A stretch of DNA of 64,000 nucleotides from Acidobacteriota bacterium. Lineage in GTDB: Bacteria > Acidobacteriota > Aminicenantia > UBA2199. Shown here in pieces: positions 1 through 13,420 of this stretch (the stretch's first letter is position 1; each line of letters starts with the position of its first letter). The DNA lies in assembly GCA_039714255.1 (NCBI GenBank), contig JBDLJQ010000005.1, positions 11,914 through 75,913 on the forward strand. The letters run 5' to 3'. A program made the position numbers and the translations under genes. A model generated the notes under the pieces. The model searched no databases and had not been told where the DNA came from. It saw only the letters and a list, made by a program, of their open reading frames with translations.

Positions 1-539
1 ACATCATCACATAAAAGGGGAAATGTTGATTTGCACTCAATACATCTCTCTGCAAGTATCTCTTCAGCAGGTACTTTTATATTGCCGAATTTTGTTCCGA
101 TCAGTAAATTATTAGTTTTATCAAATATAACTTTTTCCGGTTTTTTCCCTCTGAATTTTTTTTTTATTTTTTTCTGATCAATAACTCCTCCGTATTCACA
201 GGAAACACCGATAATATATATATCTTTTCTTTCAAGGAATTTTTCCTGGAGAAGAACAGCGATAGATCTGGTGTCACAGGCCTTGGCAATAATTCCCACC
301 GGAAGAGTGTTTTCAGCCTTATTCTTTAATTGTTCTTTTTTTTCTTCCACAAGATAACGGGACAGATTTTGAATGCATGATGCTTCCCAGATAAGCTCAT
401 CAGTATCTTCAGGTTCTTTAATAAATGTAGGGAGTGCTGTTAATCCGTTTGTCCCCCGTTTATATCCAATAAGATATTTGATCTTTTTCTCTTTTAATAA
501 TCTTTTTGCCTCTTTTTTAATATCTTCAATGTGTACCAT
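1..539 (-). CDS. FlxD/FdhB(FrhB)-like Fe-S protein associated with Hdr/MvhD; partial, runs off the left edge
   Basis: Not in the ORF track. Manual translation from the ATG at 539 (TGATG overlap with the mvhD stop): MVHIEDIKKEAKRLLKEKKIKYLIGYKRG...ELIWEASCIQNLSRYL...VGIIAKACDTRSIAVLLQE...IIGVSC...ERCIEC. This is the pattern of FdhB/Flx subunits that follow mvhD. Confidence 0.7.
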   Translation of the reverse strand, partial: MVHIEDIKKEAKRLLKEKKIKYLIGYKRGTNGLTALPTFIKEPEDTDELIWEASCIQNLSRYLVEEKKEQLKNKAENTLPVGIIAKACDTRSIAVLLQEKFLERKDIYIIGVSCEYGGVIDQKKIKKKFRGKKPEKVIFDKTNNLLIGTKFGNIKVPAEEILAERCIECKSTFPLLCDD

Positions 540-958
540 CAATTTCCCCGTATAAGTTTGTTCTGAGGCCCCAGGAAACGGATCTCTTCAACAAAATCTT
601 TTGCCAGTTCAGTGAACTTTGCCCCTTCAGCTGCTGATACCCATGACATTTTAAAACGTTTTTCATCCATTCCGATATAATTTAATAATTCGGTTAGGAG
701 TAATATTTTTCTCCTTGCATAAAAGTTGCCTTTTATATAATGACAGTCACCCGGGTGGCATCCTGATATTAAAACTCCATCTGCTCCATTCCTGAATGCG
801 GAGAGGACATAAAGTGGAGATACACTACCGGAGCACATAACAGTTATGGGAATAATATTTGGAGGATATTTCATCCTGGAGACACCTGCAAGGTCACTTC
901 CGGCTGATGAACACCACTTGCATAAAAAGGCTATGATCCTGGGTTCGTATTGTTCCAT
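539..958 (-). CDS. mvhD: Methyl-viologen-reducing hydrogenase delta subunit ([2Fe-2S], MvhD/FlpD)
   Basis: EPRIIAFLCKWCS..GSDLAG, MCSG and GCHPGDCHY..GN motifs; directly downstream of hdrA. Confidence 0.93.
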   Translation of the reverse strand: MEQYEPRIIAFLCKWCSSAGSDLAGVSRMKYPPNIIPITVMCSGSVSPLYVLSAFRNGADGVLISGCHPGDCHYIKGNFYARRKILLLTELLNYIGMDEKRFKMSWVSAAEGAKFTELAKDFVEEIRFLGPQNKLIRGN

Positions 959-961
959 TTT

Positions 962-2908
962 TTATCCTCCCAGAGAAGCATTTATTATATTGTGAACCTG
1001 AAGAGGTGTATGATTTTTTATTTCAATTGCAGCTCTCAAACATGTGGCATAACATGTACCGCATCCTTCACATAATATTTCGTTTACCTTTGCCTTATTG
1101 TCTTCCAGGGATAAAGCTTCATAGGGGCATACATCAACACACATATTACATCCTGTACATAATCTGGTATTAACTTTGGCAACTGTGGGTGAATGGTAAA
1201 GTTTGTCCTGGGAAAGAATAGTTATCGATTTGGCAGCGGCTCCGCTTGCCTGAGCCACACATTCGGGAATATCTTTGGGTGAAAGGGCTGAGCCTGCAAA
1301 GAATAATCCTGAAGTGATACTTTCAACCGGTTTCAGTTTAGGGTGTGCTTCAGCAAAGAATCCATCCTTGTCCAGCGATACTTTTAATTTTTTTGCCAGT
1401 TCTGCTGCTCCTGCAGAAGGCCTTGTTGCCATGGCAAGGACAACCATATCTGCATTAATTTCAATAGTTTTGCCTATTAATGTATCAACGCCCCATACTT
1501 TTAATTTTCCACGTTCTTCATAAACTTTTGATACTTTGCCCCGAAGGTACAGGGTATTATCCTCCTCAATGGTCCTCTGGACAAATTCTTCATAACCTTT
1601 TCCTCCGGACCGGATATCAATATAAAAAATATAAGCCTGTCCGTCATGGACATTATGCTTATATAACATTGCATGTTTGGCTGTATACATACAGCATATC
1701 TTTGAACAGTATGCACAGTGGAGTTCAGGGTCTCTGGAACCTGCACATTGAATAAAAACTATCTCTTTCGGTTCTTTGTGGTCTGAAGGACGTAATATTT
1801 TTCCACCCGTCGGCCCTGAAGCCGAACACAGTCGTTCAAACTGAAGGCTGTCAATTACATCAGGATATTTACCATAGCCGAATGAGGTCATCTCTTTTTT
1901 GTCATAGAGCTCATATCCGGTTGCAGCTATAATTGAACCCACTTCAAATTCAAGTATTTCGGGTTTCATATCAAAATCAATGGCATTTACTTCACATACA
2001 TCTGCACATTTTCCACAGGCTATCGGGACAAAACCGGGGCAGGAATTTATATCTAAAGTGTAAGTTGCCGGGATCGCCTGAGGGGAAGGTATATAGATAG
2101 CCCGCCTCCCTGTGAGGCTGAGGTCAAATTCGTTCGGAACAAGTACAGGACATACTTTAGTACATTCATCACACATGTTACATTTATCAGGATCCACATA
2201 TGTTGGTTTCTTTTTCACCTTTACCTTAAAATTACCAATATATCCTGAAACCTCTTCGATCTCACTATAAGTTAACAGATCGATGTTCGGGTGTTTTGAA
2301 ACTTCGACCATTTTTGGTGTAAGAATACATTGCGAACAGTCCAGGGTGGGAAAAGTTTCAGATAACTGGATCATGTGTCCGCCTATGGAAGGATCTTTTT
2401 CAACCAGAATAACTTTGTATCCGCTGTTCGCAAGGTCAAGTGATGCCTGTATCCCGGTAATACCTCCCCCCACAACAAGTGCTTTTTTTGTAACAGGAAA
2501 ACCTATGGGTTCCAGGGAGTCGTTGCCCCTGACCCTCTCCACAGCACTTTTACTTAATTTTATTGCCTTATCGGTTGCTCTCTCCCTGTTTGTATGTACC
2601 CAGCTGCATTGTTCCCTTATATTTGCAATTTCACAATGAAACTGGTTGAGACCTGCAGATTTTACCGCATTTCTGAATGTGGATTCGTGCAGGGTCGGGG
2701 AGCAGCATGATATAACAACCTTATCGAGCTTTTCCTCTTTTATTGCATCGGTTATAAGACTCTGGCCGGGGTCGGAACACATATATACATAATCTCTGGA
2801 ATAGACAACTCCCGGATAGCCCTTCATTTCATCTACAACCTTTTTAATATCAACTATGCCAGCAATATTAATTCCGCAATGGCAGATGAAAAAACCGATA
2901 CGCTTCAT
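962..2908 (-). CDS. hdrA: Heterodisulfide reductase subunit A (FAD, Fe-S; electron bifurcating)
   Basis: CHCGINIA, NIREQCSWVH, VGGGITG FAD motif, ETFPTLDCSQC, CSKICC, and inserted plus C-terminal ferredoxin motifs. Confidence 0.96.
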   Translation of the reverse strand: MKRIGFFICHCGINIAGIVDIKKVVDEMKGYPGVVYSRDYVYMCSDPGQSLITDAIKEEKLDKVVISCCSPTLHESTFRNAVKSAGLNQFHCEIANIREQCSWVHTNRERATDKAIKLSKSAVERVRGNDSLEPIGFPVTKKALVVGGGITGIQASLDLANSGYKVILVEKDPSIGGHMIQLSETFPTLDCSQCILTPKMVEVSKHPNIDLLTYSEIEEVSGYIGNFKVKVKKKPTYVDPDKCNMCDECTKVCPVLVPNEFDLSLTGRRAIYIPSPQAIPATYTLDINSCPGFVPIACGKCADVCEVNAIDFDMKPEILEFEVGSIIAATGYELYDKKEMTSFGYGKYPDVIDSLQFERLCSASGPTGGKILRPSDHKEPKEIVFIQCAGSRDPELHCAYCSKICCMYTAKHAMLYKHNVHDGQAYIFYIDIRSGGKGYEEFVQRTIEEDNTLYLRGKVSKVYEERGKLKVWGVDTLIGKTIEINADMVVLAMATRPSAGAAELAKKLKVSLDKDGFFAEAHPKLKPVESITSGLFFAGSALSPKDIPECVAQASGAAAKSITILSQDKLYHSPTVAKVNTRLCTGCNMCVDVCPYEALSLEDNKAKVNEILCEGCGTCYATCLRAAIEIKNHTPLQVHNIINASLGG

Positions 2909-3465
2909 TTTTTCTCCTCTTTTCGATTTTTCTTCTGTTCTTGTCCATAGTCATAACCTTTGTCAAAAGCTCTGAAATTCAGGTCTATATATCTTTCCGG
3001 TACAAGTCCCGGGATAGCTTTTTTCATAGCTGCGGCTGAAACTTCCGATGTTATTGATGTGAAAAATCCGAGCATAACGAGGTTTGCTGTGATCCTGTTA
3101 CCAAGGCTCTCTGCAAATCTGGTGGAAGGAATTGAATAAACTTTAATATTTCCTCTCGGAGGTTTTGATTTTACAAGGTCCTTGTCTATCAGAAGAGTAC
3201 CGTCAGGGATAAGATCCGGTTCATATTTTTCATAGGCTTCCTGGGACATAGATACAAGAATTTCCGGCTTGTCGATATATGGATATAGGATCCTTTCATC
3301 AGAAACTATAAGTTGGGAACTGCATGCACTACCACGGGCTTCAGGCCCGAAACTTTGTGTCATTGTAGAATATTTATTATCAAAAAGAGCAATAGCCTTC
3401 CCTGTGATAAGGCCGCATCTTATTATCCCCTGGCCTCCGAATCCTGAAAATCTGATCTCAGTCAT
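2905..3465 (-). CDS. korC: 2-oxoacid:ferredoxin oxidoreductase gamma subunit
   Basis: EIRFSGFGGQG, QSFGPEARGSACS and ANLVMLG motifs. Start moved to the ATG at 3465 (GGAGA upstream). Confidence 0.9.
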   Translation of the reverse strand: MTEIRFSGFGGQGIIRCGLITGKAIALFDNKYSTMTQSFGPEARGSACSSQLIVSDERILYPYIDKPEILVSMSQEAYEKYEPDLIPDGTLLIDKDLVKSKPPRGNIKVYSIPSTRFAESLGNRITANLVMLGFFTSITSEVSAAAMKKAIPGLVPERYIDLNFRAFDKGYDYGQEQKKNRKEEKK

Positions 3466-4333
3466 TCTCAATTCTCCCGTATAGTTGATAGTCGTCTCCC
3501 ATAACCTTACCCAGATGGCTGTTCATATCATCAAGGAAGGTGGGTTTCTCTTTTTCAACAAATTTTCCCACTATCAACTTACCCTGGAAGTCTATATCAA
3601 GGGTTTTTGTGTCAACATTATGGCGGATATCAGAATTATCATGATAGTATTTTAAAAGATTTAATCCGTCACCGAGACGGTTTCTTCTGGCATAAAGTGT
3701 TACGCATGGAGTAATAACCTCGATGAAAGAAAATCCTTTCCAGTTAAGTGCTTCCTGGATCGATTTGGTAACTCTCCTGAGGTGCAGGGCTGTCCATCTT
3801 GCCACGTATGTTGCACCGGCTGCTTCTGCGAGATATGGAAGGCTGAAAGAGTTCTCAAAATTACCAAATGGTGCTGTTGATGCGTTAGCGCCCCGGGGGG
3901 TTGTAGCTGCCACCTGTCCCCCTGTCATTGCATAGTTAAAATTATTTACACATATAATAGTTAAATCCATATTTCTTCTTGCTGCATGAATAAAATGGTT
4001 GCCTCCAATACCCGCAATATCTCCGTCGCCACTGAACACAATAACTTTCATTTCAGGGTTGGCAAGTTTTAATCCGGTTGCAAACGGGATAGCTCTTCCA
4101 TGGGTAGTATGAAATGAATCGAGTTTTACATATCCTGCCACCCTTCCGGTACAACCTATTCCTGAAACCACAGCAACTTTATCAAGATCTGACTCATTTT
4201 TTCTCAGTGCATCTACAAAGGATGTAACAACAGTGCCGATCCCGCATCCGGAACACCATATGTGTGGGATACGGTCCATCCTCAGGTATTCTTCTACAGG
4301 ATTTTCATCGGATGAATGGTTCTTTTCATTCAT
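3458..4333 (-). CDS. korB: 2-oxoacid:ferredoxin oxidoreductase beta subunit (TPP-binding)
   Basis: WCSGCG, SGIGC, HGRAIPFATG and GDGD...NN..Y.MTGGQ TPP motifs. Confidence 0.93.
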   Translation of the reverse strand: MNEKNHSSDENPVEEYLRMDRIPHIWCSGCGIGTVVTSFVDALRKNESDLDKVAVVSGIGCTGRVAGYVKLDSFHTTHGRAIPFATGLKLANPEMKVIVFSGDGDIAGIGGNHFIHAARRNMDLTIICVNNFNYAMTGGQVAATTPRGANASTAPFGNFENSFSLPYLAEAAGATYVARWTALHLRRVTKSIQEALNWKGFSFIEVITPCVTLYARRNRLGDGLNLLKYYHDNSDIRHNVDTKTLDIDFQGKLIVGKFVEKEKPTFLDDMNSHLGKVMGDDYQLYGRIEND

Positions 4334-5496
4334 TTTGCCGCCTCCCTGATCTTTTTATAAATATCTTTGGGGTTGTGTACCCAGCCGCCCATATGTGGAA
4401 CACTTATCACTTTTGTTTTTCCTGCCACACACCGCTCAACCTCCAGAACCATCTGTCCGTAATTTATTTCAGGAACTATGAACGCTTTAACTTTTTTTGC
4501 CAATGCTTTTATCCTTTTTTCAGGAAATGGCCATACTGTCACAAGTCTTACTGTTCCTACCTTTAAACCTTCTTTCCTCGCTTCAATAACAGCTTTAATT
4601 GCTACCCTTGACGTAATTCCGTAAGAGAGGACTATTACATCGGCATTATCCGTCTCAGTCTCTTCTATGTGGATGATCTTATCTGTATTTTTATTAATTT
4701 TATCTTTCAGATGATTTATAGTTATCTTCTGCCATTCTGCATTGATCGCAGGATATCCTCTCTCATCGTGTGTTAATCCTGTTGTGTGAAAACGATACCC
4801 GTCTCCAACCTTCACCATAAATGGAACAAGGTCATCATCAGGTTTGTAAGGAAGGTATTTATCCTTAGGCCCTTTGTACCATTTCCTCCCAACGATCTTT
4901 ATTTTATCTGCAGGTGGTATGACAACCTTTTCATGCATGTGTCCGACACATTCATCGGTCATGATAAAACATGGGACCCTGAATTGTTCAGAAAGATTAA
5001 ATGCCTCTATTGTGAGGTCAAAACACTCCTGAGGTGAATCTGGTGACAGGGCAATGATCTCATAATCGCCATGAGAGCCCCATTTAACCTGCATCATATC
5101 CTGCTGTGCGGTCAGGGTAGGTAGTCCGGTAGAGGGGCCTCCCCTCTGAACATTAGCGATAACAAGGGGGGTTTCCATCATGCAGGCCAGGCCTATGTTT
5201 TCCATCATCAGGGAAAATCCGGGGCCTGATGTTACGGTCATTACTTTTTTTCCTCCCCATGAAGCACCTATCAAAGCAGCAATTGAAGCCAGTTCATCTT
5301 CCATCTGGATAAAAACACCTCCAACAGAGGGGATCCGTTCGGAAAATCTTTCTGCTGTCTCAGTTGACGGTGTTATGGGGTATCCTGCGAAAAACCTGCA
5401 TCCTGCTGCAAGGGCACCTTCAGCAAGTGCATAATCTCCATCGAGGAAATGAGCACCGCTTAAAACCCCTTTGGAATCTACTTTAACGTTTTTCAC
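4330..5496 (-). CDS. korA: 2-oxoacid:ferredoxin oxidoreductase alpha subunit
   Basis: AGYPITP, QMEDE, TSGPGFSL and QRGGPSTGLPT motifs. True start is likely the GTG at 5496 (GGAGGAGG just upstream), not 5664. Confidence 0.93.
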   Translation of the reverse strand: MKNVKVDSKGVLSGAHFLDGDYALAEGALAAGCRFFAGYPITPSTETAERFSERIPSVGGVFIQMEDELASIAALIGASWGGKKVMTVTSGPGFSLMMENIGLACMMETPLVIANVQRGGPSTGLPTLTAQQDMMQVKWGSHGDYEIIALSPDSPQECFDLTIEAFNLSEQFRVPCFIMTDECVGHMHEKVVIPPADKIKIVGRKWYKGPKDKYLPYKPDDDLVPFMVKVGDGYRFHTTGLTHDERGYPAINAEWQKITINHLKDKINKNTDKIIHIEETETDNADVIVLSYGITSRVAIKAVIEARKEGLKVGTVRLVTVWPFPEKRIKALAKKVKAFIVPEINYGQMVLEVERCVAGKTKVISVPHMGGWVHNPKDIYKKIREAAK

Positions 5497-5743
5497 TTTC
5501 CTCCTCCTTGTTTTCGGTTGCAAAGATGGCAAACTCGGGACAAATGGTTTCACAAAGCTGACAATAGATACAATTGTCCTCATCAATAACAACCGGGGGA
5601 TGATACCCTTTCTGATTGAAATCTTCTGAAAGTTTAAGAACTTCATTAGGGCAGTATTCAACACAGAATCCGCACCCTTTACACCTTTCGGTTATGATAT
5701 GAATTTTACCTGTTACTTTTTTCAGAGTTCCAAAATATACCAT
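5483..5743 (-). CDS. korD: 2x[4Fe-4S] ferredoxin-like OFOR delta subunit
   Basis: CKGCGFCVEYCP and CIYCQLCETICPEFAI; directly upstream of the alpha subunit. Confidence 0.88.
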   Translation of the reverse strand: MVYFGTLKKVTGKIHIITERCKGCGFCVEYCPNEVLKLSEDFNQKGYHPPVVIDEDNCIYCQLCETICPEFAIFATENKEEESEKR

Positions 5744-5750
5744 TTTATCC

Positions 5751-6632
5751 TCAGAACAATCCCTTCTCTTTTAATATTGGCATCGGATCAATATGATGAA
5801 GGTCTAATCTCAGTTCGTCCCTGGAGCAGCCGAGAGCTATTGCAAGGAGCTGGGTAAAATATATAACAGGCATATTTTTAAAATCCGGATACAATTTTTG
5901 AACATTTTTTTGTCTTTGATCAAGGTTGAAAGCACATAAAGGGCAGCTGACACTGATAATTTCCGCACCCTGGGTTCTGGCGGAATCTATGATCTGCCTC
6001 GTTCTGGATGCAATAATGTCTGGATCAGTGAGAGTCTGGTAAGAGGCGCAACATTCTGTTTTAAGAGGAAAATCTATAGCTTCAGCTCCTATTGAAGACA
6101 TCAGATCTTCCATGATCATGGGGTTTTCCACATCATCTATAGCAATTTCCCTCGGCCTTACAAGCATACATCCGTAATAACTTGAAACATTCAGGTTATT
6201 TAACGGTTTTTTTGTTTTTGAAGTAATAGTTTCAAAACCGATCTCATCCTTCAGTAGTTCAAGAAGGTGGATTATTTTTACATCTCCTTTATATTGTGTC
6301 TCTTCCTTCCACATGAAATTATTGATCCTCTCCAGTTCTTCAGGATTATTTTTTACCCTTTCATTGGAACTTTTAAGTGTGCTGTAGCACATTGAGCAAA
6401 GTGTCAACAGGGTATCGGATCCTGTTTTCCTTGTCCTTACAAGGTTTCGTATCGGGGCAATATGATGGATCAGATTGTCAGTTGTCAATGAAAAGACTGT
6501 CCCGCAGCAATACCATTTGTCAAGCTCTTCAAAAGGGACCTTCAATTTATCAAGGATATAAAGTGTTGAATCTTCAAAATTTTTTGCTGTACTTTTTAGA
6601 GTACATCCCGGATAATAACTGATCTTTTTCAT
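5751..6632 (-). CDS. hdrB: Heterodisulfide reductase subunit B (two CCG domains)
   Basis: YYPGC...WYCCG...CSMC and YYGC...ECCA...CPLCAFNLD; PVIYFTQLL. Confidence 0.93.
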   Translation of the reverse strand: MKKISYYPGCTLKSTAKNFEDSTLYILDKLKVPFEELDKWYCCGTVFSLTTDNLIHHIAPIRNLVRTRKTGSDTLLTLCSMCYSTLKSSNERVKNNPEELERINNFMWKEETQYKGDVKIIHLLELLKDEIGFETITSKTKKPLNNLNVSSYYGCMLVRPREIAIDDVENPMIMEDLMSSIGAEAIDFPLKTECCASYQTLTDPDIIASRTRQIIDSARTQGAEIISVSCPLCAFNLDQRQKNVQKLYPDFKNMPVIYFTQLLAIALGCSRDELRLDLHHIDPMPILKEKGLF

Positions 6633-7036
6633 GAGGTCAGTTTTCTCATGGAGCTGATAATTGCTATGGGTGGTATTTCTCCAATATCATCCTCAGATAT
6701 TTCTCTTATCTTTAGATGATCTTTTCCTTTCCTTAGAAGGATCTGTCTTGCAGCTTCAAATACTTCTGCTATATTTATACCCTTCGGGCACCGTGTATTG
6801 CAGGTGAAACATGAAGCACAGATCCAGATGGCCTTTGAATGGAGCAGTTCCTCCTCCAGGCCCATCTGAGCATAACGGATTATCTGGTTGGGGAGGATAT
6901 CCATTTCGGACACAACAGGGCAACCAGCTGAACATTTTCCGCACTGGTAACAGCTAAGCAGGTCCTGGCCGCTTAGTTCTTCAATCTTTTTTACGAACGA
7001 ATTCCAGACCTTATCCCTGGATATCCTGATCCTCAT
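6629..7036 (-). CDS. hdrC: Heterodisulfide reductase subunit C (short, 2x[4Fe-4S])
   Basis: CYQCGKCSAGCP and IWICASCFTCNTRCPKG; ATGA overlap with hdrB. Confidence 0.92.
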   Translation of the reverse strand: MRIRISRDKVWNSFVKKIEELSGQDLLSCYQCGKCSAGCPVVSEMDILPNQIIRYAQMGLEEELLHSKAIWICASCFTCNTRCPKGINIAEVFEAARQILLRKGKDHLKIREISEDDIGEIPPIAIISSMRKLTS

Positions 7037-7131
7037 TGTAGTTCATTTAGTTTTAAAAAATTTTTAAATACTTAAAAAACCTGAGGAACACTTACTAAAA
7101 AAGACATTTACAAGCTCTTTTTTAATAAAAC

Positions 7132-7160
7132 AATATAGTATTAAAATTTTTGTTTTTCAA
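7132..7160 (-). promoter_or_regulatory. Putative sigma70 promoter of the hdr-kor operon
   Basis: Minus strand reads TTGAAA-17 nt-TATATT, about 95 nt upstream of hdrC. The AT-rich context makes this uncertain. Confidence 0.35.
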
Positions 7161-7237
7161 TTTTTTATTTATTTTTTTCAGGAGTTAATCAAGACTTGCA
7201 AACTTTAAGGGTTTAATTTTATTTCCTGTTATTATTT

Positions 7238-7960
7238 TTACCTGACCGTAAAATACATATGAGCCCAATAGAAGAAATCAATTTTTGATCCCAAAGCTGT
7301 TTCTTTTGTCAATCTGAATTTCCCCATCGGGCCAACCACTTCAAGGTCAAATCTGTATCTGTTACCCGGGACAAAGATATGTCTCGGTACGTTCACATTT
7401 TCTGCAGTGACAATCGTGCTGAAAATTTCAGTATTTGTTGTAAAATTCTTTATTGTTACTTTGGTTCTCAGAGTTGCTCCGGTATAGTTCCAGCGGAATT
7501 GTACTGTTCTCCGCAATGATCGTGTGAAGGAAATTTTTGAATCGGGACGGGGGTATACCCACTCAATATAGTTTTTGAGCTTATATTTACCCAGGATTAT
7601 TTCTTTTGCCCTCTCCCTTGTTGCAGGTAATATTCTGGAAGGTTTTGGAATCATTTTTATTACAATTGTTTTTCCACCGGAGACATCGTAAGGATAAGGG
7701 GTTCCTCCGGTATAAAGGCCTCCACCCTGGTCATTGAGCAGGAGAGTATCAAGATAAACTTTCTGCCCGGTGAGAGTACTTCCGGACTTTGATAAATTCA
7801 GATATGCATTGAGATAACCAAGGTATTGAGAATGTCCGTTAATTCTTATTTTTCCTGTACGGGATAGTTTTAAAGCCCCCTTTGTTGTCCCCGCTAAGGG
7901 AGAAAAGATAAGAAAGGCTGTTATAATTATTATTAATAAATGAGTTTTTTTTATTATCAT
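7238..7960 (-). CDS. Secreted hypothetical protein, basic and beta-rich
   Basis: AAGGAGG precedes the ATG at 7960; signal peptide MIIKKTHLLIIIITAFLIFSPLAG; no family recognised. Confidence 0.7.
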   Translation of the reverse strand: MIIKKTHLLIIIITAFLIFSPLAGTTKGALKLSRTGKIRINGHSQYLGYLNAYLNLSKSGSTLTGQKVYLDTLLLNDQGGGLYTGGTPYPYDVSGGKTIVIKMIPKPSRILPATRERAKEIILGKYKLKNYIEWVYPRPDSKISFTRSLRRTVQFRWNYTGATLRTKVTIKNFTTNTEIFSTIVTAENVNVPRHIFVPGNRYRFDLEVVGPMGKFRLTKETALGSKIDFFYWAHMYFTVR

Positions 7961-8021
7961 GGCAATATTCCTCCTTTTCAAAAAAGTGTCTGTTAATAAT
8001 ATAAATCTCAATACAAAAAAA

Positions 8022-8267
8022 TCACAGTATTAATAAATTTATTCTGACTTTTATAATATATTGAAAAAATATGAGAGGATAAAAAGGAGGCCGAACCCGG
8101 CAAGCATTAAAAGTATCATAAAGAATAGTACTCCCTGTAAGGCTTTTTGAAATATCCGGAGGGTTTTTTTCACAATCCTCTGCTTCCGGCATTGAGTCCG
8201 GCGCAGCGATCCTTGTAAAATTCATATGATCATCATTTATAATAATTGTTTTATCTTTATCATCCAT
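8022..8267 (-). CDS. Possible small hypothetical protein
   Basis: 81-aa ORF with AAGGTGA 5 nt before the ATG, on the same strand as its neighbours; no recognisable motif. Confidence 0.25.
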   Translation of the reverse strand: MDDKDKTIIINDDHMNFTRIAAPDSMPEAEDCEKNPPDISKSLTGSTILYDTFNACRVRPPFYPLIFFQYIIKVRINLLIL

Positions 8268-8440: not shown

Positions 8441-9400
8441 TTAAAAGCTTGGTATGACTACATTTTGACAGGAAGGGTTTAACAGTGTTCCCTTTGCTAC
8501 AACAAAATGATTGTCCTTCAGCTTGAAGCTGTAATTACATTTTTCTTTATATACAATTGCATTGGCAATGGAACCCACAACCGGATAAGCATAATACACA
8601 GTCATGTTAATCTTGGTGTTGACCTTGTAGTTGATGATTTTTTCCTGCCCAACCGCAAGTTTGAAGGATTTATGGGAATCGAGGGGATCATCTGTGATCC
8701 ATGAAAATTTAACAATAGCTGCCGCATTATTGCGAATCTTTAAAAATCGTTCCTGTTTGCAGTCGGTATAAAACTTGACCGATGACAGCGCATCATTTTT
8801 GACCATCGTGTTTGCCATGACCGGGATGTGTGTTCTTATGGTTTGACATTTTCCGCCGTAATTTTTTTCGCTGTAAAGGGAAGCTTTATTCATGTTGAAT
8901 ATTTTAATTGAGGATACCATGTTATTCATATTTCCCTGACCACTCAAGTCTGCATTGTTCATCTTCAATTTGTATTGACGACCTTTATAATTGTTATGTT
9001 CAAACAATATCAAATGGGGTACTTTGAATACTTGATTTGCCGGGCAGGTGGCGTTTATTTTGATTGATGAAATACCCTTCATTCCCACTTCTGTGAGCAT
9101 GAGGTTTTCAACATCTTTTTTCACTGTTTTGCATATCCCTTCATAGTTTGCACGTGAAAACAAGGCGACTGATGTTGCACTCTTGATACGGATTGAGACT
9201 ACTCTGTTATTCATATTGATAGCTGGTAAGCTCAAATCCGCTGCATTAGCAGACAATTTAACACTTTCGCCCTTAAAGTACAGTGAATTGTAGATGATAA
9301 TTTCCGCAGCACCAACTGTTGAAACCGTTAAACATGATATAAACAGTGCCATAATGAGTGAAAAACAGACGTTTCTTTTTAAGTTACTTTTTGTTTTCAT
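8441..9400 (-). CDS. Secreted beta/gamma-crystallin domain protein (two domains) with a C-terminal beta-sandwich
   Basis: Signal peptide; four Greek-key motifs (YNSLYFKG..NNRVVS, FSRANYEG..KGISS, FEHNNYKG..NNMVSS, YSEKNYGG..NDALSS). Confidence 0.85.
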   Translation of the reverse strand: MKTKSNLKRNVCFSLIMALFISCLTVSTVGAAEIIIYNSLYFKGESVKLSANAADLSLPAINMNNRVVSIRIKSATSVALFSRANYEGICKTVKKDVENLMLTEVGMKGISSIKINATCPANQVFKVPHLILFEHNNYKGRQYKLKMNNADLSGQGNMNNMVSSIKIFNMNKASLYSEKNYGGKCQTIRTHIPVMANTMVKNDALSSVKFYTDCKQERFLKIRNNAAAIVKFSWITDDPLDSHKSFKLAVGQEKIINYKVNTKINMTVYYAYPVVGSIANAIVYKEKCNYSFKLKDNHFVVAKGTLLNPSCQNVVIPSF

Positions 9401-10477: not shown

Positions 10478-13420
10478 TCAGGCACTTCCGGTAAAATCAA
10501 AACTTATTTTTTTCTGAAAAACATTGATAGTTGAGAAAATATATTTTAGCATATGCAGTTCTGCCTCTGTAAGCTCACCGGGGTCGATGTTGTTGTCCGG
10601 TTTCCGGTTATCTTCAATATTTTTAACCTGGTGTTTTAACCTGACCTTCATAAGAAAATCAAATATTTCCTGAAATTCCCTGCCGGAGGACTCTGTCATA
10701 TCATCTGTTCTTAACAGGTGTGAAACCCTTGCCTGAGTATTGGTTTCCCTGATCCTGTTCTTCAGAGAATATATCCTTCCGAAATTTACCAGCAATTGTA
10801 TCGGGTCTTTGATGTTGAAAGTGGATTGTTTTTCTCCTCCGGACTCAAGCTGGATATTGCCGAAAAACCCGATGGGGGGCTTGTATTGAAGAGCGTTCCT
10901 TGCAATATGCTGAAGGAACAGGGGGTTAATGTCTATTTCACTGTCGATAAAAGACCTGAGATCATCAACCATTGAACTCTCTCCGGATACTATCCTGAAA
11001 TCGAAGAAGATGCTGACCTCCAGAAGGTCTGATGGCGAGGAGTTGTTTATCCAGTTCCTGAAATATTTTTTCCAATCTGACAGCGGTTTGTTCCATTTGC
11101 TGTTCATTGCCATTATTTCCCCTGAGCAAAAAGTATAGCCGCATGTGTTCAGCCAGGTTGATACCCTCTTTCCCAGTTCCAGAAAATATGTTTCAGCTTC
11201 TTTTTTTAATTTTTTGTTTTCTGTATCTTCATAGATTATTGCATTGTCCTGGTCGGTTAACAGAGTCTGCTCTTTCCTCCCTTCGCTTCCCATTGTGATA
11301 AATGAAAATTTCAATGGGGGTTTTCCCAACTCATCAATGGCAAAATCGATCAGCCTCTTCAGTATGGAGTCGGCAATGTAGGAAATTTTACTGCATATGA
11401 TCTTCGAGTCGGCCCCGCTGTCTGTCAGAACCCTTACAAGGGATGGAACCCTTTTATATTTTGGAAAAACTTCCTGTACAAATTCTGTTTCCCGGATCTC
11501 AGATATAAGGAGAGAGGATGAATTGTTCTGAATGTTGAAGATCAGGTCCCTATTGACCGATCCGATTATCTTTCCGCTGAGATCTGTTACTGCCAGGTTC
11601 CCGATCTTTTTCTCTCTCATCAAAATAAGGGATTCAAATATAGAGGAATTCCGGGATATAGAGATCACGGGAGCGCTCATAATATTCATTACAGGAGAAT
11701 CTGCGGAAATGCCTGCACCTATGACCCTGTCCCTCAGGTCTCTGCTTGTGAGAACTCCAATATATTCATTCAGCACACCGGCTTCCGGAAGGTTGTTCCT
11801 GATGAAAATAATATCCTGTCCGGTCCTGGACATTAACGATACTGCATCTTTTATCGGGGAATCAGGTGAACAGGAAATAATTCCTCTGAGGTGATTGATA
11901 AGAGGATCTTCAAGAATAAGCTGAGAGGTTTTCAACTCTGCCATCAGTTTGTTCTTTTCTTCTTCGGAACGGAACCTTTCAGTGATATCTTCAACAATTC
12001 CGTCATAATATCTGTTGTCTCTGTCAGGCCCTTTTACCAGCACCAGAGATATCATCAATGTTTTAATATCTCCATCGGGCCTCTTTATCCTGATCACTTC
12101 ATTCTTAATAAATCCCTGTTCAAGCAGGTTTTTCCCGAGGTTTGCCCATTTTTCAGTGGATATAAAAAGATCCGGGATCTTTATCTCTGAAACATCAGAC
12201 AATGATCGAAAACCGAGAATATTAAGAGCGGCAGGGTTTGACTCCACTATTTTTCCTTTACGTCCCAGGGTGGAACGGAACACTCCTATCTTCAGGTTAT
12301 CTGTAAGGTTCCTGTATTGTTCTCTGCTTTCTCCCAGTTCTTCTCTGATCTTTTTGCTGCTGCTGATATCATTGACAACGATTGCATCTCCATAGTCCTC
12401 TCCATATGAGATCTTTGATACATAGAGGAGTACGTCTTTAATATCTCCATCTTTCTTTATAAATCTGCTCTCTACAGGATCTGAAACTGCTTCCCCCTTT
12501 ATCAGGCCTTTGAACTTACCAAATTCCGATTCATCTCCTGCCTGATCCGGAGGAAATATTGAGTGGAGGTCCAGTTTTTCGAACTCCTTTTCACTATATC
12601 CTAAAAATCTGTGAATATATTTATTGGAATAGAGTATCTTATTTTCCCGCACGATAAGGATACCCTGGGTTGTGGCTTCGACAAGAGACCTGTATTTTTC
12701 CTCGGATTTAATGAGCCTGTTCTCAATGGCCCTCCTCTTCCTCTCAATTTTTAATCCCATGTTCATTATGTAGAAAAGTATTAAAGAGATGAACAGGAAT
12801 ATTATAAAAGATACCAGGATAATTTTTTTTGCAAGTTGGGCTATCTCCTTGTCAACATCTTCCGTGTATATTCCAGTTCCGATTATCCATCCCCAGGGTT
12901 TGAACTCCTTCACATAGGATAGTTTGGGTACAACCTTCGCCGGATCATCTTTCCATTGCCACATATATTCGATAAAGCCCTGTTCACTGTCCCTGCAAAG
13001 CTCTACCATGGAAATGAACATTCTTTTTCCTGAAGGGTCCACTTCCCCGGAAAGGTCTTTCCCCTCCAGTGCAGTCCTGTAAGGGTGCATCACCATTCTC
13101 GGCTGTTTATCGATTATCCAGAAATAATCTTTATTCTCCCTCCCGTACCTTAAAAACCGGATATCTTTTTTTGCCAGTTCTCTGGCCTCTCCGGGAGTGT
13201 ATTTTTCCCCTTCGATCTCACTATTATATTTATCCAGGATACTTAATGCAGAATTGGTAAGTTGCTGGATCATCTCTTTTTTCCGTTCCATGATACTTTT
13301 TTTAAACTGGGGAACGATAAAGAAAAAAATGGAAAAAATAAAAAGCCCCACAGCCAGAGATGCGGGAAAGATCAATCTGAAGTTTGATATGGAGAGCCCT
13401 GAACTCTTATTGTCATCCAT
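10478..13420 (-). CDS. Membrane sensor: TM-sCache_2-TM-PAS-PAS-CBS pair-DUF294 nucleotidyltransferase-DUF294_C
   Basis: Cache (LRYG..DYFWI..MVMHP..IEYMW..KLSYV..WGWIIGTGIY); PAS ends NDIS and EDITER; CBS pair; NTase motif MGSEGRKEQTLLTDQDNAII; FFDFR. Confidence 0.88.
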   Translation of the reverse strand: MDDNKSSGLSISNFRLIFPASLAVGLFIFSIFFFIVPQFKKSIMERKKEMIQQLTNSALSILDKYNSEIEGEKYTPGEARELAKKDIRFLRYGRENKDYFWIIDKQPRMVMHPYRTALEGKDLSGEVDPSGKRMFISMVELCRDSEQGFIEYMWQWKDDPAKVVPKLSYVKEFKPWGWIIGTGIYTEDVDKEIAQLAKKIILVSFIIFLFISLILFYIMNMGLKIERKRRAIENRLIKSEEKYRSLVEATTQGILIVRENKILYSNKYIHRFLGYSEKEFEKLDLHSIFPPDQAGDESEFGKFKGLIKGEAVSDPVESRFIKKDGDIKDVLLYVSKISYGEDYGDAIVVNDISSSKKIREELGESREQYRNLTDNLKIGVFRSTLGRKGKIVESNPAALNILGFRSLSDVSEIKIPDLFISTEKWANLGKNLLEQGFIKNEVIRIKRPDGDIKTLMISLVLVKGPDRDNRYYDGIVEDITERFRSEEEKNKLMAELKTSQLILEDPLINHLRGIISCSPDSPIKDAVSLMSRTGQDIIFIRNNLPEAGVLNEYIGVLTSRDLRDRVIGAGISADSPVMNIMSAPVISISRNSSIFESLILMREKKIGNLAVTDLSGKIIGSVNRDLIFNIQNNSSSLLISEIRETEFVQEVFPKYKRVPSLVRVLTDSGADSKIICSKISYIADSILKRLIDFAIDELGKPPLKFSFITMGSEGRKEQTLLTDQDNAIIYEDTENKKLKKEAETYFLELGKRVSTWLNTCGYTFCSGEIMAMNSKWNKPLSDWKKYFRNWINNSSPSDLLEVSIFFDFRIVSGESSMVDDLRSFIDSEIDINPLFLQHIARNALQYKPPIGFFGNIQLESGGEKQSTFNIKDPIQLLVNFGRIYSLKNRIRETNTQARVSHLLRTDDMTESSGREFQEIFDFLMKVRLKHQVKNIEDNRKPDNNIDPGELTEAELHMLKYIFSTINVFQKKISFDFTGSA

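Follow-up and report, generated by a model that had tools for sequence, protein, structure and literature searches.

The window considered here is a stretch of 64,000 nucleotides (nt) from an uncultured Acidobacteriota bacterium of the Aminicenantia (contig JBDLJQ010000005.1 of assembly GCA_039714255.1, which is 93% complete with 4.1% contamination). It corresponds to G000:C5:11914-75913, and genes lying to its left are given as G000:C5 contig positions. On the minus strand of window positions 1-7036, nine head-to-tail genes are found in the order hdrC-hdrB-korD-korA-korB-korC-hdrA-mvhD-flxC, as identified from a list of open reading frames (ORFs) and from Pfam and NCBIfam profiles. The genes for a 2-oxoacid:ferredoxin oxidoreductase (Kor) are nested in one operon between hdrCB and hdrA-mvhD-flx, that is, within the gene set of a heterodisulfide reductase-like (Hdr) complex. 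A first-pass annotation of this DNA had named all nine genes, placed them correctly, and recognized the nesting; its observation is confirmed, and the interpretation that it offered is partly supported. We propose that the operon encodes a soluble, NADH-fed, electron-bifurcating fumarate reductase of the HdrA type with a built-in four-subunit Kor, a reading to which we give about an even chance and in which Kor is probably specific for 2-oxoglutarate.

The genes are packed tightly. Within the window they are joined by four-base overlaps (6629-6632, 4330-4333, and 2905-2908), by gaps of 7 nt (hdrB/korD) and 3 nt (hdrA/mvhD), by a 14-nt overlap of korD with korA, and by one base common to the mvhD stop and the flxC start (TGATG at 541-537), in agreement with the junctions described earlier. 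The operon extends 5.4 kb past the left edge of the window, with its further genes at G000:C5:7151-12455, and the full unit comprises 13 genes, hdrC-hdrB-korDABC-hdrA-flxD-flxC-flxB-flxA-frdB-frdA, of which the window covers the first nine. The choice between FlxABC and a hydrogenase, for which the annotation had looked to the genes beyond the edge, falls to flxC-flxB-flxA, which are followed by frdB-frdA. Every gap among the left-flank operon genes is at most 12 nt, and all junctions of the operon are at most 14 nt. Directly 3' of frdA lies a hairpin with an 11-bp stem (G000:C5:7120-7145), the sole strong hairpin and a strong terminator. Because the junctions are so tight and the only strong hairpin follows frdA, the 13 genes are read from the sequence as a single operon. 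A scan of the operon found no strong internal terminator; the terminator-like sites inside have stems of only 5-6 bp and show little excess over shuffled sequence (17 versus 10.4 +/- 3.8), and promoter-like sites are not enriched (38 versus 34.5 +/- 6.3). The idea that internal promoters or terminators might split kor from hdr finds no footing in these counts. The coordinates are collected in Table 1.

Table 1. Genes and features of the operon, in order of transcription after the upstream region (plain numbers are window positions; the prefix G000:C5 marks contig positions)
Feature	Position	Strand	Characteristics
AT-rich 201-nt region 5' of hdrC	7037..7237	-	putative promoter TTGAAA-17 nt-TATATT at 7160-7132, from a consensus match
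hdrC-like	6629..7036	-	135 aa, short 2x[4Fe-4S] protein, first operon gene; Pfam Fer4_8; NCBIfam HdrC 84 bits, cut-off 160
hdrB-like	5751..6632	-	293 aa; Pfam CCG x2, ten cluster cysteines; NCBIfam 181 bits, cut-off 345
korD, delta subunit	5483..5743	-	86 aa, 2x[4Fe-4S] ferredoxin-like; Pfam Fer4 x2, two CxxCxxCxxxCP motifs
korA, alpha subunit	4330..5496	-	388 aa from GTG 5496; Pfam POR_N and PFOR_II
korB, beta subunit (thiamine diphosphate-binding)	3458..4333	-	291 aa; Pfam TPP_enzyme_C, E = 5e-33
korC, gamma subunit	2905..3471	-	start TTG 3471 or ATG 3465; Pfam POR, E = 3e-29
hdrA, flavoprotein of electron-bifurcating type	962..2908	-	648 aa, 32 Cys
mvhD/flxD, MvhD-type [2Fe-2S] adaptor	539..958	-	139 aa; Pfam FlpD, E = 3.2e-50, whole profile
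flxC-like, 5' part	1..539	-	Fe-S protein of 343-344 aa; full gene G000:C5:11421-12452
flxB	G000:C5:10379-11416	-	AsrA/ShyB-like
flxA	G000:C5:9562-10413	-	NAD-binding and [2Fe-2S]
frdB	G000:C5:8834-9550	-	238 aa; one plant-type [2Fe-2S] motif and two [4Fe-4S] motifs
frdA	G000:C5:7151-8821	-	556 aa, FAD_binding_2 flavoprotein; best family TfrA

The operon Kor has all four subunits, delta, alpha, beta, and gamma, each with its expected domain (Fer4, POR_N/PFOR_II, TPP_enzyme_C, and POR, respectively). KorA scores 564 bits with the NCBIfam model for the alpha subunit of 2-oxoacid:acceptor oxidoreductases, a generic model with a cut-off of 411. The best models of KorB and KorD are those for the beta (253 bits, cut-off 364) and delta (OGOR_delta, 72 bits, cut-off 125) subunits of 2-oxoglutarate ferredoxin oxidoreductase (OGOR), and KorC reaches 194.7 bits with a gamma subunit model whose cut-off is 235. 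The listed ORF of korA reaches 5664 and is taken to be too long, with GTG 5496 as the start, because the family alignment begins only at about residue 70 and a ribosome-binding site, AAGGAGGAGG, precedes that GTG.

HdrA aligns over its full length with the solved methanogen HdrA 5ODC_A (690 bits, residues 3-639 against 5-643), as does HdrB with the solved chains 8RVU_b and 5ODC_B. MvhD matches positions 645-775 of the NCBIfam HdrA2 model, which is itself an HdrA-MvhD fusion. HdrA (823 bits with the HdrA2 model, cut-off 1100), HdrB, and HdrC all miss the equivalog cut-offs for the coenzyme B (CoB)-coenzyme M (CoM) enzyme. The host is not a methanogen, as the annotation had also held, and, to judge by its lineage, it presumably does without CoM/CoB chemistry. 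For the last gene of the window the earlier flx/fdhB-like label stands in its Flx half only: the protein is FlxC-like, starts at the ATG at window 539, carries Fer4_8/Fer4_9 matches in its C-terminal half, and has orthologues of 49-59% identity that come after flxD in related loci.

The two last genes of the operon encode a soluble fumarate-reductase-like pair. FrdA finds its best family in TfrA (346 bits, cut-off 718) and its best solved relative in an SdhA. In alignment with the SdhA of the same genome and with 44 orthologues, it retains as invariant residues the HPT His, the TE..R motif, the PRD Arg, the HY His, and the NRL Arg, the His and Arg among which we take to have their customary catalytic roles. 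Where this SdhA carries the His that binds flavin adenine dinucleotide (FAD) covalently, FrdA has an Asn that is likewise invariant in the 44 orthologues. That His is needed, through the covalent 8-alpha-FAD linkage, for the oxidation of succinate, and Escherichia coli FrdA variants at this position still reduce fumarate and no longer oxidize succinate; the Asn therefore favors the reductive direction. The annotation had coupled 2-oxoacid oxidation to bifurcation or confurcation; on the strength of this Asn the reverse direction is more likely. The first 94 residues of FrdA (G000:C5:8540-8821) contain invariant residues that include an HPD motif, have no Pfam match, and are kept in all 44 aligned orthologues.

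FrdB itself lacks a CCG domain. Together with HdrC and HdrB it covers the model of the single-chain TfrB consecutively and without overlap (FrdB 23-92, HdrC 124-231, and HdrB 262-485 of 488 positions), and from these alignments FrdA, FrdB, HdrC, and HdrB look like a Tfr that has been split into pieces and plugged into HdrA. The high-potential acceptor is likely to be fumarate. The disulfide of unspecified nature that had earlier been placed at HdrB is, given the FrdB/FrdA pair at the end of the operon and the predicted docking of FrdB described next, most likely replaced by it.

The two CCG domains of HdrB hold ten cysteines for two non-cubane [4Fe-4S] clusters, and none of the ten (C10, C42, C43, C79, C82, C155, C194, C195, C230, and C233) varies in any of the 62 sequences compared. 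The second CCG motif reads CCA (residues 194-196), as the annotation had remarked; 25 of the 62 sequences have A as the third residue, 36 have G, and 1 has S, and with all ten cysteines invariant the change is set aside as a neutral polymorphism of no functional weight. The contact of these sites with FrdB was modeled by predicting the complex of HdrC, HdrB, and FrdB, with FrdB as the partner and with its own 38-row alignment for each chain. FrdB was placed on HdrB/HdrC with an interface score (ipSAE) of 0.87 (0.84, 0.87, and 0.87 in the individual runs) versus 0.10 for the best control; the runs had at least 92% of contacts in common, and the local confidence (pLDDT) of the partner was at least 77. 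In calibration, 116 of 157 solved complexes attained this mark, as did 2 of 215 mismatched pairs, a guide that is only rough when alignments are self-supplied. The predicted interface brings FrdB 111-152, which contains the first CxxCxxCxxxCP motif, against HdrB 10, 13-15, 39-44, and 55-62 and against HdrC 110-134, and so sets the first [4Fe-4S] motif of FrdB against HdrB C10/C42 and the HdrC tail; many of the residues involved vary little or not at all among the aligned sequences. The model supports a direct wire from HdrB to FrdB and, as a prediction, makes a free disulfide a less likely acceptor.

The conservation of the layout was examined by tblastn with the 13 operon proteins in the best 80 of 496 genomic relatives of this HdrA, a sample that is not unbiased. 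These loci are mostly from metagenome-assembled genomes (MAGs) titled Aminicenantes, and the rest are mostly from Alpha-, Beta-, and Gammaproteobacteria, including Blastochloris sulfoviridis DSM 729. Among the loci with at least 4.4 kb of sequence upstream, korA-korB-korC lie directly 5' of hdrA, with hdrB before them, in 58 of 59, the exception being L075; this arrangement is far beyond chance. The search for such synteny had been suggested by the first-pass annotation, and its outcome disposes of the idea that the order is unique to this assembly. On the other side of hdrA, flxDCBA-frdBA follows in 41 of the 59 loci whose downstream sequence extends for 5.9 kb or more. Of the others, 16 with proteobacterial titles have flxDCBA and lack frdBA, and L056 and L075 have flxD-frdBA.

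In the 14 proteobacterial loci searched, no homologue of hdrC or frdBA was found within 10 kb. The proteobacterial orthologues are 64-68% identical in HdrA and 66-73% in KorA, and in L062 and L064 type-II ATP-citrate-lyase-like genes come directly after hdrB-korDABC-hdrA-flxDCBA, joined in L062 by a gene for a monomeric isocitrate dehydrogenase (IDH). The same hdrB-korDABC-hdrA-flxDCBA order is seen among L058-L080 in cultured and uncultured Alpha- and Betaproteobacteria, including Rhodomicrobium, Rhodocyclaceae MAGs, and Blastochloris (L062), the last of which could serve as a cultivable test host for the module. The only fusion of neighboring genes in the 80 loci is in L080, a Rhodocyclaceae MAG, where flxD and flxC form one read-through frame. 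A candidate MvhD-FrdB fusion in L075 was rejected, the two matches lying in different frames and therefore in separate genes.

Clusters of this kind are common among Aminicenantia: 122 of 201 sampled genomes have a match to the HdrA at E <= 1e-100, a figure that includes paralogous cluster types. Four layouts can be distinguished. Type I, found here, is hdrCB-korDABC-hdrA-flxDCBA-frdBA. Type II (L056, L090, L094, and L096) is the same without flxCBA and always has a spermine-synthase-like gene on one side and PilZ/glyS on the other; three of these four clusters show an MvhD match, and L096 shows none to flxD. Type III is hdrCB-hdrA-flxD-frdBA-korDABC, in which Kor, as in L091 and L095, still accompanies Hdr-MvhD-Frd although it has moved to the end of the operon. 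Type IV is a plain hdrCB-hdrA-flxDCBA, separate in other Aminicenantia, with an HdrA of 54% identity. In L075, [NiFe] hydrogenase genes surround hdrCBA-mvhD-frdBA without kor, so that a hydrogenase replaces both Flx and Kor. HdrABC and FrdBA make up the constant part, to which MvhD belongs everywhere except in L096; Kor accompanies this core in three of the layouts, at two different places, and the donor module is variable. In four of five type II genomes a FlxA-like gene of about 41% identity is found away from the cluster, on other contigs; the operon query found none in the fifth, G034, which is 93% complete. In G005:C16 (about 22-33 kb; L093/L094) a second Hdr operon lies directly 5' of the type II cluster and comprises hdrA-hdrC-hdrB, NuoE-like and NuoF-like genes, and genes for a 1075-aa Fer2_4 + Pyr_redox_2 + Fer4 protein, an MvhD, and a 362-aa protein without a family.

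With type IV as the root, a tree of 84 HdrA sequences branches first to type III and then to type II, and leaves a clade with support 100 that unites type I Aminicenantes (59 sequences) with Proteobacteria (15, in one clade). The tree was made by a quick method (FastTree), with a root chosen by the analyst and a sample that does not include the tubeworm symbionts discussed below; it hints that the nested layout may have arisen in Aminicenantia-like bacteria and been taken up by proteobacterial islands for the reductive tricarboxylic acid (rTCA) cycle. In the same tree the HdrA sequences of L003, L006, L011, L015, and others nest in Aminicenantes despite titles such as 'uncultured Eubacteriales', 'Bacteroidales', 'Clostridiales', and 'Candidatus Desulfaltia', and these deposited labels are probably off.

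Within its own genus the operon is confined to this genome, as far as the HdrA query at E <= 1e-100 can tell: it has no match in 7 of 7 other genomes, which are 63-96% complete. Five of them retain the left flank up to the operon terminator, at 69-75% nucleotide identity, without the 12-kb operon; parts of the right flank are found a few kb on or elsewhere, and the operon sits at a synteny break. Flanks that match at this level place the contig in the genus, and the operon has either been acquired by this genome or lost from the others. The flanking genes are unrelated to it, with no aclAB, idh, pntAB, or rnf beside the operon, which is therefore not embedded among rTCA genes.

Elsewhere the genome carries a complete oxidative tricarboxylic acid (TCA) set. 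It has one ordinary citrate synthase (a 392-aa frame), an 863-aa aconitase-family frame, an NADP-dependent IDH, a canonical SdhCDAB, and a class I fumarase, together with Vor and Ior and with a NadB that adjoins nadC. A second four-subunit Kor on contig C7 has a beta subunit that passes the OGOR cut-off (375 versus 364 bits); the Kor and Frd of the operon are extra copies dedicated to the Hdr-Flx module. Since the Ligase_CoA matches are to SucCD only and the citrate synthase is ordinary, no ATP-citrate lyase is present, and a classical rTCA cycle is therefore unlikely. For the module here, a role as a reductive branch leading from fumarate to 2-oxoglutarate, or as the redox sink of a heterotroph that ferments, is more likely than one in an autotrophic rTCA cycle. 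Aminicenantes are described as fermenters in the literature.

The sequences show the gene content, the structure of the operon and its conservation, the intact cofactor and catalytic motifs, and the homology to a published cluster discussed below; the substrates, the direction, and each step of electron transfer are inferred. In the mechanism that we propose, a hydride from NAD(P)H would be taken by FlxA, and the electrons would pass via FlxB, FlxC, and the MvhD-like FlxD to the FAD of HdrA, where the pair would be split. The high-potential electron would reach the docked FrdB by way of HdrC and both non-cubane clusters of HdrB, and would go on from the [2Fe-2S] and two [4Fe-4S] clusters of FrdB to a non-covalent FAD in FrdA, where fumarate would be reduced to succinate. 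The low-potential electron would leave by the ferredoxin domain of HdrA, either to free ferredoxin or directly to KorD, and would drive the reductive carboxylation of succinyl-CoA to 2-oxoglutarate. The net reaction would be 2 NADH + fumarate + succinyl-CoA + CO2 to 2 NAD+ + succinate + 2-oxoglutarate + CoA. With potentials of -320 mV for NADH, +30 mV for fumarate, and about -450 mV for ferredoxin, the ferredoxin-forming reaction would be downhill by roughly 110 mV per electron, or about -40 kJ per 2 NADH, and the whole reaction of NADH, fumarate, succinyl-CoA, and CO2 would be close enough to equilibrium to go in either direction.

If true, the mechanism shows how an anaerobe obtains from NADH electrons low enough in potential for a 2-oxoglutarate synthase, with the reduction of fumarate paying the price, and it would give the first example of an HdrABC in which the 'disulfide' site passes electrons straight to another enzyme. 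The Aminicenantia variants, some of which have the NADH module and some not, and in which kor may be nested or appended, are ready-made biochemical controls. A still closer integration, in which all the parts form one soluble machine, the HdrB clusters relay into docked FrdB/FrdA instead of reducing a disulfide, KorD sits in the low-potential exit of HdrA, and NADH alone drives the net reaction with no free ferredoxin or thiol, recalls the supercomplex that the annotation had entertained, and we regard it as doubtful. No Kor-Hdr gene fusion occurs among the neighboring cluster genes of the 80 loci. In a search for long HdrA proteins (E <= 1e-50, 8000 candidates scored), none of the best 120 of 6054 HdrA-like matches, of 1135-3240 aa, carried POR, POR_N, or TPP_enzyme_C, which is weak evidence.

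Several points weigh against the proposed reading. The OGOR-specific models that fit KorB and KorD best are missed at their cut-offs, and only KorA passes an NCBIfam cut-off, with a generic 2-oxoacid model, so that the specificity of Kor for 2-oxoglutarate is no more than probable. The fusion searches just described lend no support to physical contact between Kor and Hdr. The score of the complex is the confidence of the model itself and is not a measurement. No close solved relative of FrdB was found in a PDB search; the best PDB matches of its Fer4 part are the polyferredoxins of solved Hdr supercomplexes, and because of this some memory effect in the prediction is possible. In a related cluster of the tubeworm symbiont Endoriftia the genes are co-expressed with the exception of tfrAB, according to Mitchell et al. 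2024 (PMC11636981), and the published descriptions of this type of cluster considered here rest on genomics and transcriptomics, with no enzyme assays. FrdA lies under every equivalog cut-off, and an N-terminal extension of about 94 aa, together with the lack of the SdhA C-terminal domain, would suit another substrate. Finally, the type II clusters fit Kor as the electron donor, because they keep Kor, Hdr, and Frd without flxCBA or any other adjoining donor genes.

This last point leads to an oxidative alternative, in which Kor oxidizes 2-oxoglutarate to succinyl-CoA and CO2 and its low-potential electrons enter HdrA via KorD, to leave for fumarate via HdrCB-FrdBA and, where Flx is present, for NAD+, as a branched TCA fermentation. 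All four type II loci (L056, L090, L094, and L096) have the gene content that this would demand, type II branches before the Flx-bearing type I on the HdrA tree, the citrate synthase, aconitase, and IDH of the genome could supply the 2-oxoglutarate, and a fermenting way of life is what the literature describes for the group. Plain downhill transfer from about -500 mV to +30 mV, however, needs neither a bifurcating HdrA nor MvhD, and the retention of MvhD in three of four type II clusters, without a match in L096, suggests a donor module in trans. The second Kor of the genome scores better as an OGOR than the operon Kor, and the orthologous proteobacterial cluster adjoins ATP-citrate-lyase-like genes, a reductive context. 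We consider the oxidative route unlikely, though it is the main rival. The nesting could also be without meaning, an artefact of assembly or binning or a chance neighborhood, as its absence from the 7 same-genus genomes (HdrA query), its place at a synteny break, and the contamination of 4.1% might suggest. Against this, independent assemblies, complete chromosomes among them, show one and the same order in 58 of 59 loci, and the flanks of the contig match those of same-genus genomes; the chance of an artefact is negligible.

Two further alternatives concern the acceptor side. HdrB might reduce a disulfide after all, of a small thiol cofactor or a DsrC-like protein, with the fumarate reductase served by thiols or simply co-regulated; this is the view of the annotation and also an indirect variant put forward in the literature. 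The invariance of the ten non-cubane-cluster cysteines in 62 of 62 sequences and the full-length homology of HdrB to solved heterodisulfide reductase subunits would be at home in such a scheme, and the Tfr of methanogens does oxidize thiols. FrdB, however, has no CCG domain for thiol oxidation, it tiles the single TfrB polypeptide together with HdrC and HdrB, and the predicted seat of FrdB on the first HdrB CCG site (0.87 versus 0.10) would make that site a wire and not a substrate pocket; HdrB and HdrC also fall far short of the CoB-CoM equivalog cut-offs (Table 1). A thiol-mediated reaction is on this evidence improbable. Just as poor a prospect, in our estimate, is that FrdA/FrdB is no fumarate reductase at all and is instead aspartate-oxidase-like or another enoate-reducing flavoenzyme, in which case the operon would couple Kor and Hdr-Flx to some other reaction. 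NCBIfam models for L-aspartate oxidase score FrdA almost as high as the Frd/Sdh models do, none of them reaching its cut-off, the conserved N-terminal extension is unique, the SdhA C-terminal domain is missing, and the Asn at the covalent-FAD position is shared with NadB. FrdA nevertheless has TfrA as its best family and an SdhA as its best solved relative, carries a His where NadB has a Glu (presumably Glu121 of E. coli NadB), and is paired with an SdhB-like three-cluster protein, and the genome has a NadB of its own beside nadC.

The annotation had suspected that the gene order might already be on record, and rightly: neither layout nor idea is new, both having been published for tubeworm symbionts. 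Rubin-Blum et al. 2019 (PMC6315080) describe a flxABCD-hdrABC / korABCD / tfrAB cluster within an rTCA island and propose its mechanism, and the hosts in print are Ca. Endoriftia persephone, the Escarpia symbiont, Thioflavicoccus mobilis, and a gammaproteobacterial MAG from an aquifer (PMC6315080, PMC11636981). A 2026 survey restates the idea and notes other rTCA organisms without such co-location. As in the operon described here, a four-subunit Kor lies between hdrBC and hdrA, flxDCBA follows hdrA in the same direction, the fumarate reductase is a soluble one of the Tfr/Frd type, and electrons from NADH are proposed to be bifurcated to OGOR and fumarate reductase. The tubeworm symbionts also have two OGORs, to which the operon Kor and the second Kor form a parallel here. 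The differences are that the present operon has no aclAB, idh, pntAB, or rnf at its side and its genome no ATP-citrate lyase, that frdBA follows flxA, and that the host is a presumed fermenter among the Aminicenantes rather than a sulfur-oxidizing autotroph. The search for hdrC and frdBA homologues beside proteobacterial clusters covered 14 loci other than those of the tubeworm symbionts. What is new here is the nesting in 58 of 59 loci, the Aminicenantia variants without Flx or with kor last, the same-genus genomes that lack the operon, the Asn of FrdA, and the predicted docking of FrdB. No report of this cluster in Aminicenantes was found in the literature searches.

Among other relatives, the FlxABCD-HdrABC NADH dehydrogenase/heterodisulfide reductase of Desulfovibrio vulgaris, reportedly described by Ramos et al. 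2015, is made up of seven subunit types, all of which are present here with their cofactor motifs. It differs in that here the order is hdrCB-kor-hdrA-flxDCBA-frdBA in place of a contiguous flxABCD-hdrABC, with kor and frd added and no alcohol dehydrogenase gene, and in its acceptor, which is DsrC there and proposed to be fumarate here. In Pseudoclostridium thermosuccinogenes (P. thermosuccinogenes), Koendjbiharie et al. 2020 (PMC7282089) found a 'succinate operon' that likewise joins Flx-Hdr to a fumarate reductase and is proposed to be bifurcating, being read as an NADH-dependent, ferredoxin-reducing fumarate reductase; it has no Kor and includes a fumarase gene, and the comparison with it is one of published descriptions. 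Beyond that proposal, the literature search, whose coverage stopped short of subscription journals, found no biochemically characterized bifurcating fumarate reductase.

The methanogen MvhAGD-HdrABC complexes (5ODC, 8RVU) are matched here by full-length homologues of HdrA and HdrB, and differ in their hydrogenase, which is lacking here, and in their HdrC, which is short here; the scores fall below the equivalog cut-offs. Methanothermobacter TfrAB resembles the present proteins in that TfrA is the best family of FrdA and in that FrdB, HdrC, and HdrB tile TfrB, and differs in having a single TfrB chain where three genes are found here and in the distance to TfrA, on whose model FrdA scores less than half the cut-off. 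Hydrogenobacter thermophilus is said to have a five-subunit, soluble NADH-dependent fumarate reductase with scattered genes, reportedly described by Miura and colleagues in 2008. That enzyme would be alike in being soluble, multi-subunit, NADH-linked, and at work in the reductive TCA direction, and different in having no nested Kor.

Some further observations concern other HdrA-like proteins and the surroundings of the operon. Eight genomes of the same family, genus g2 (G072, G128, G014, G098, G142, G086, G150, and G044), have an HdrA-like frame of about 1000 aa, with 40-42% identity and exactly one in-frame TGA each (for example G128:C6:46710-48482), which may encode a selenocysteine-containing HdrA-like fusion protein. 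On the 5' side of the operon in the window, two ORFs without a family (7238-8011 and 8022-8267) precede a gene for a 319-aa protein with beta/gamma-crystallin and peptidase-inhibitor I36 domains (8441-9400, minus strand), which is described as lying two genes 5' of the operon. Further along, also on the minus strand, window 10478-13420 encodes a 980-aa sensor-type protein with Cache, PAS, CBS, and DUF294 nucleotidyltransferase domains, in a region that is found elsewhere in the same-genus genomes.

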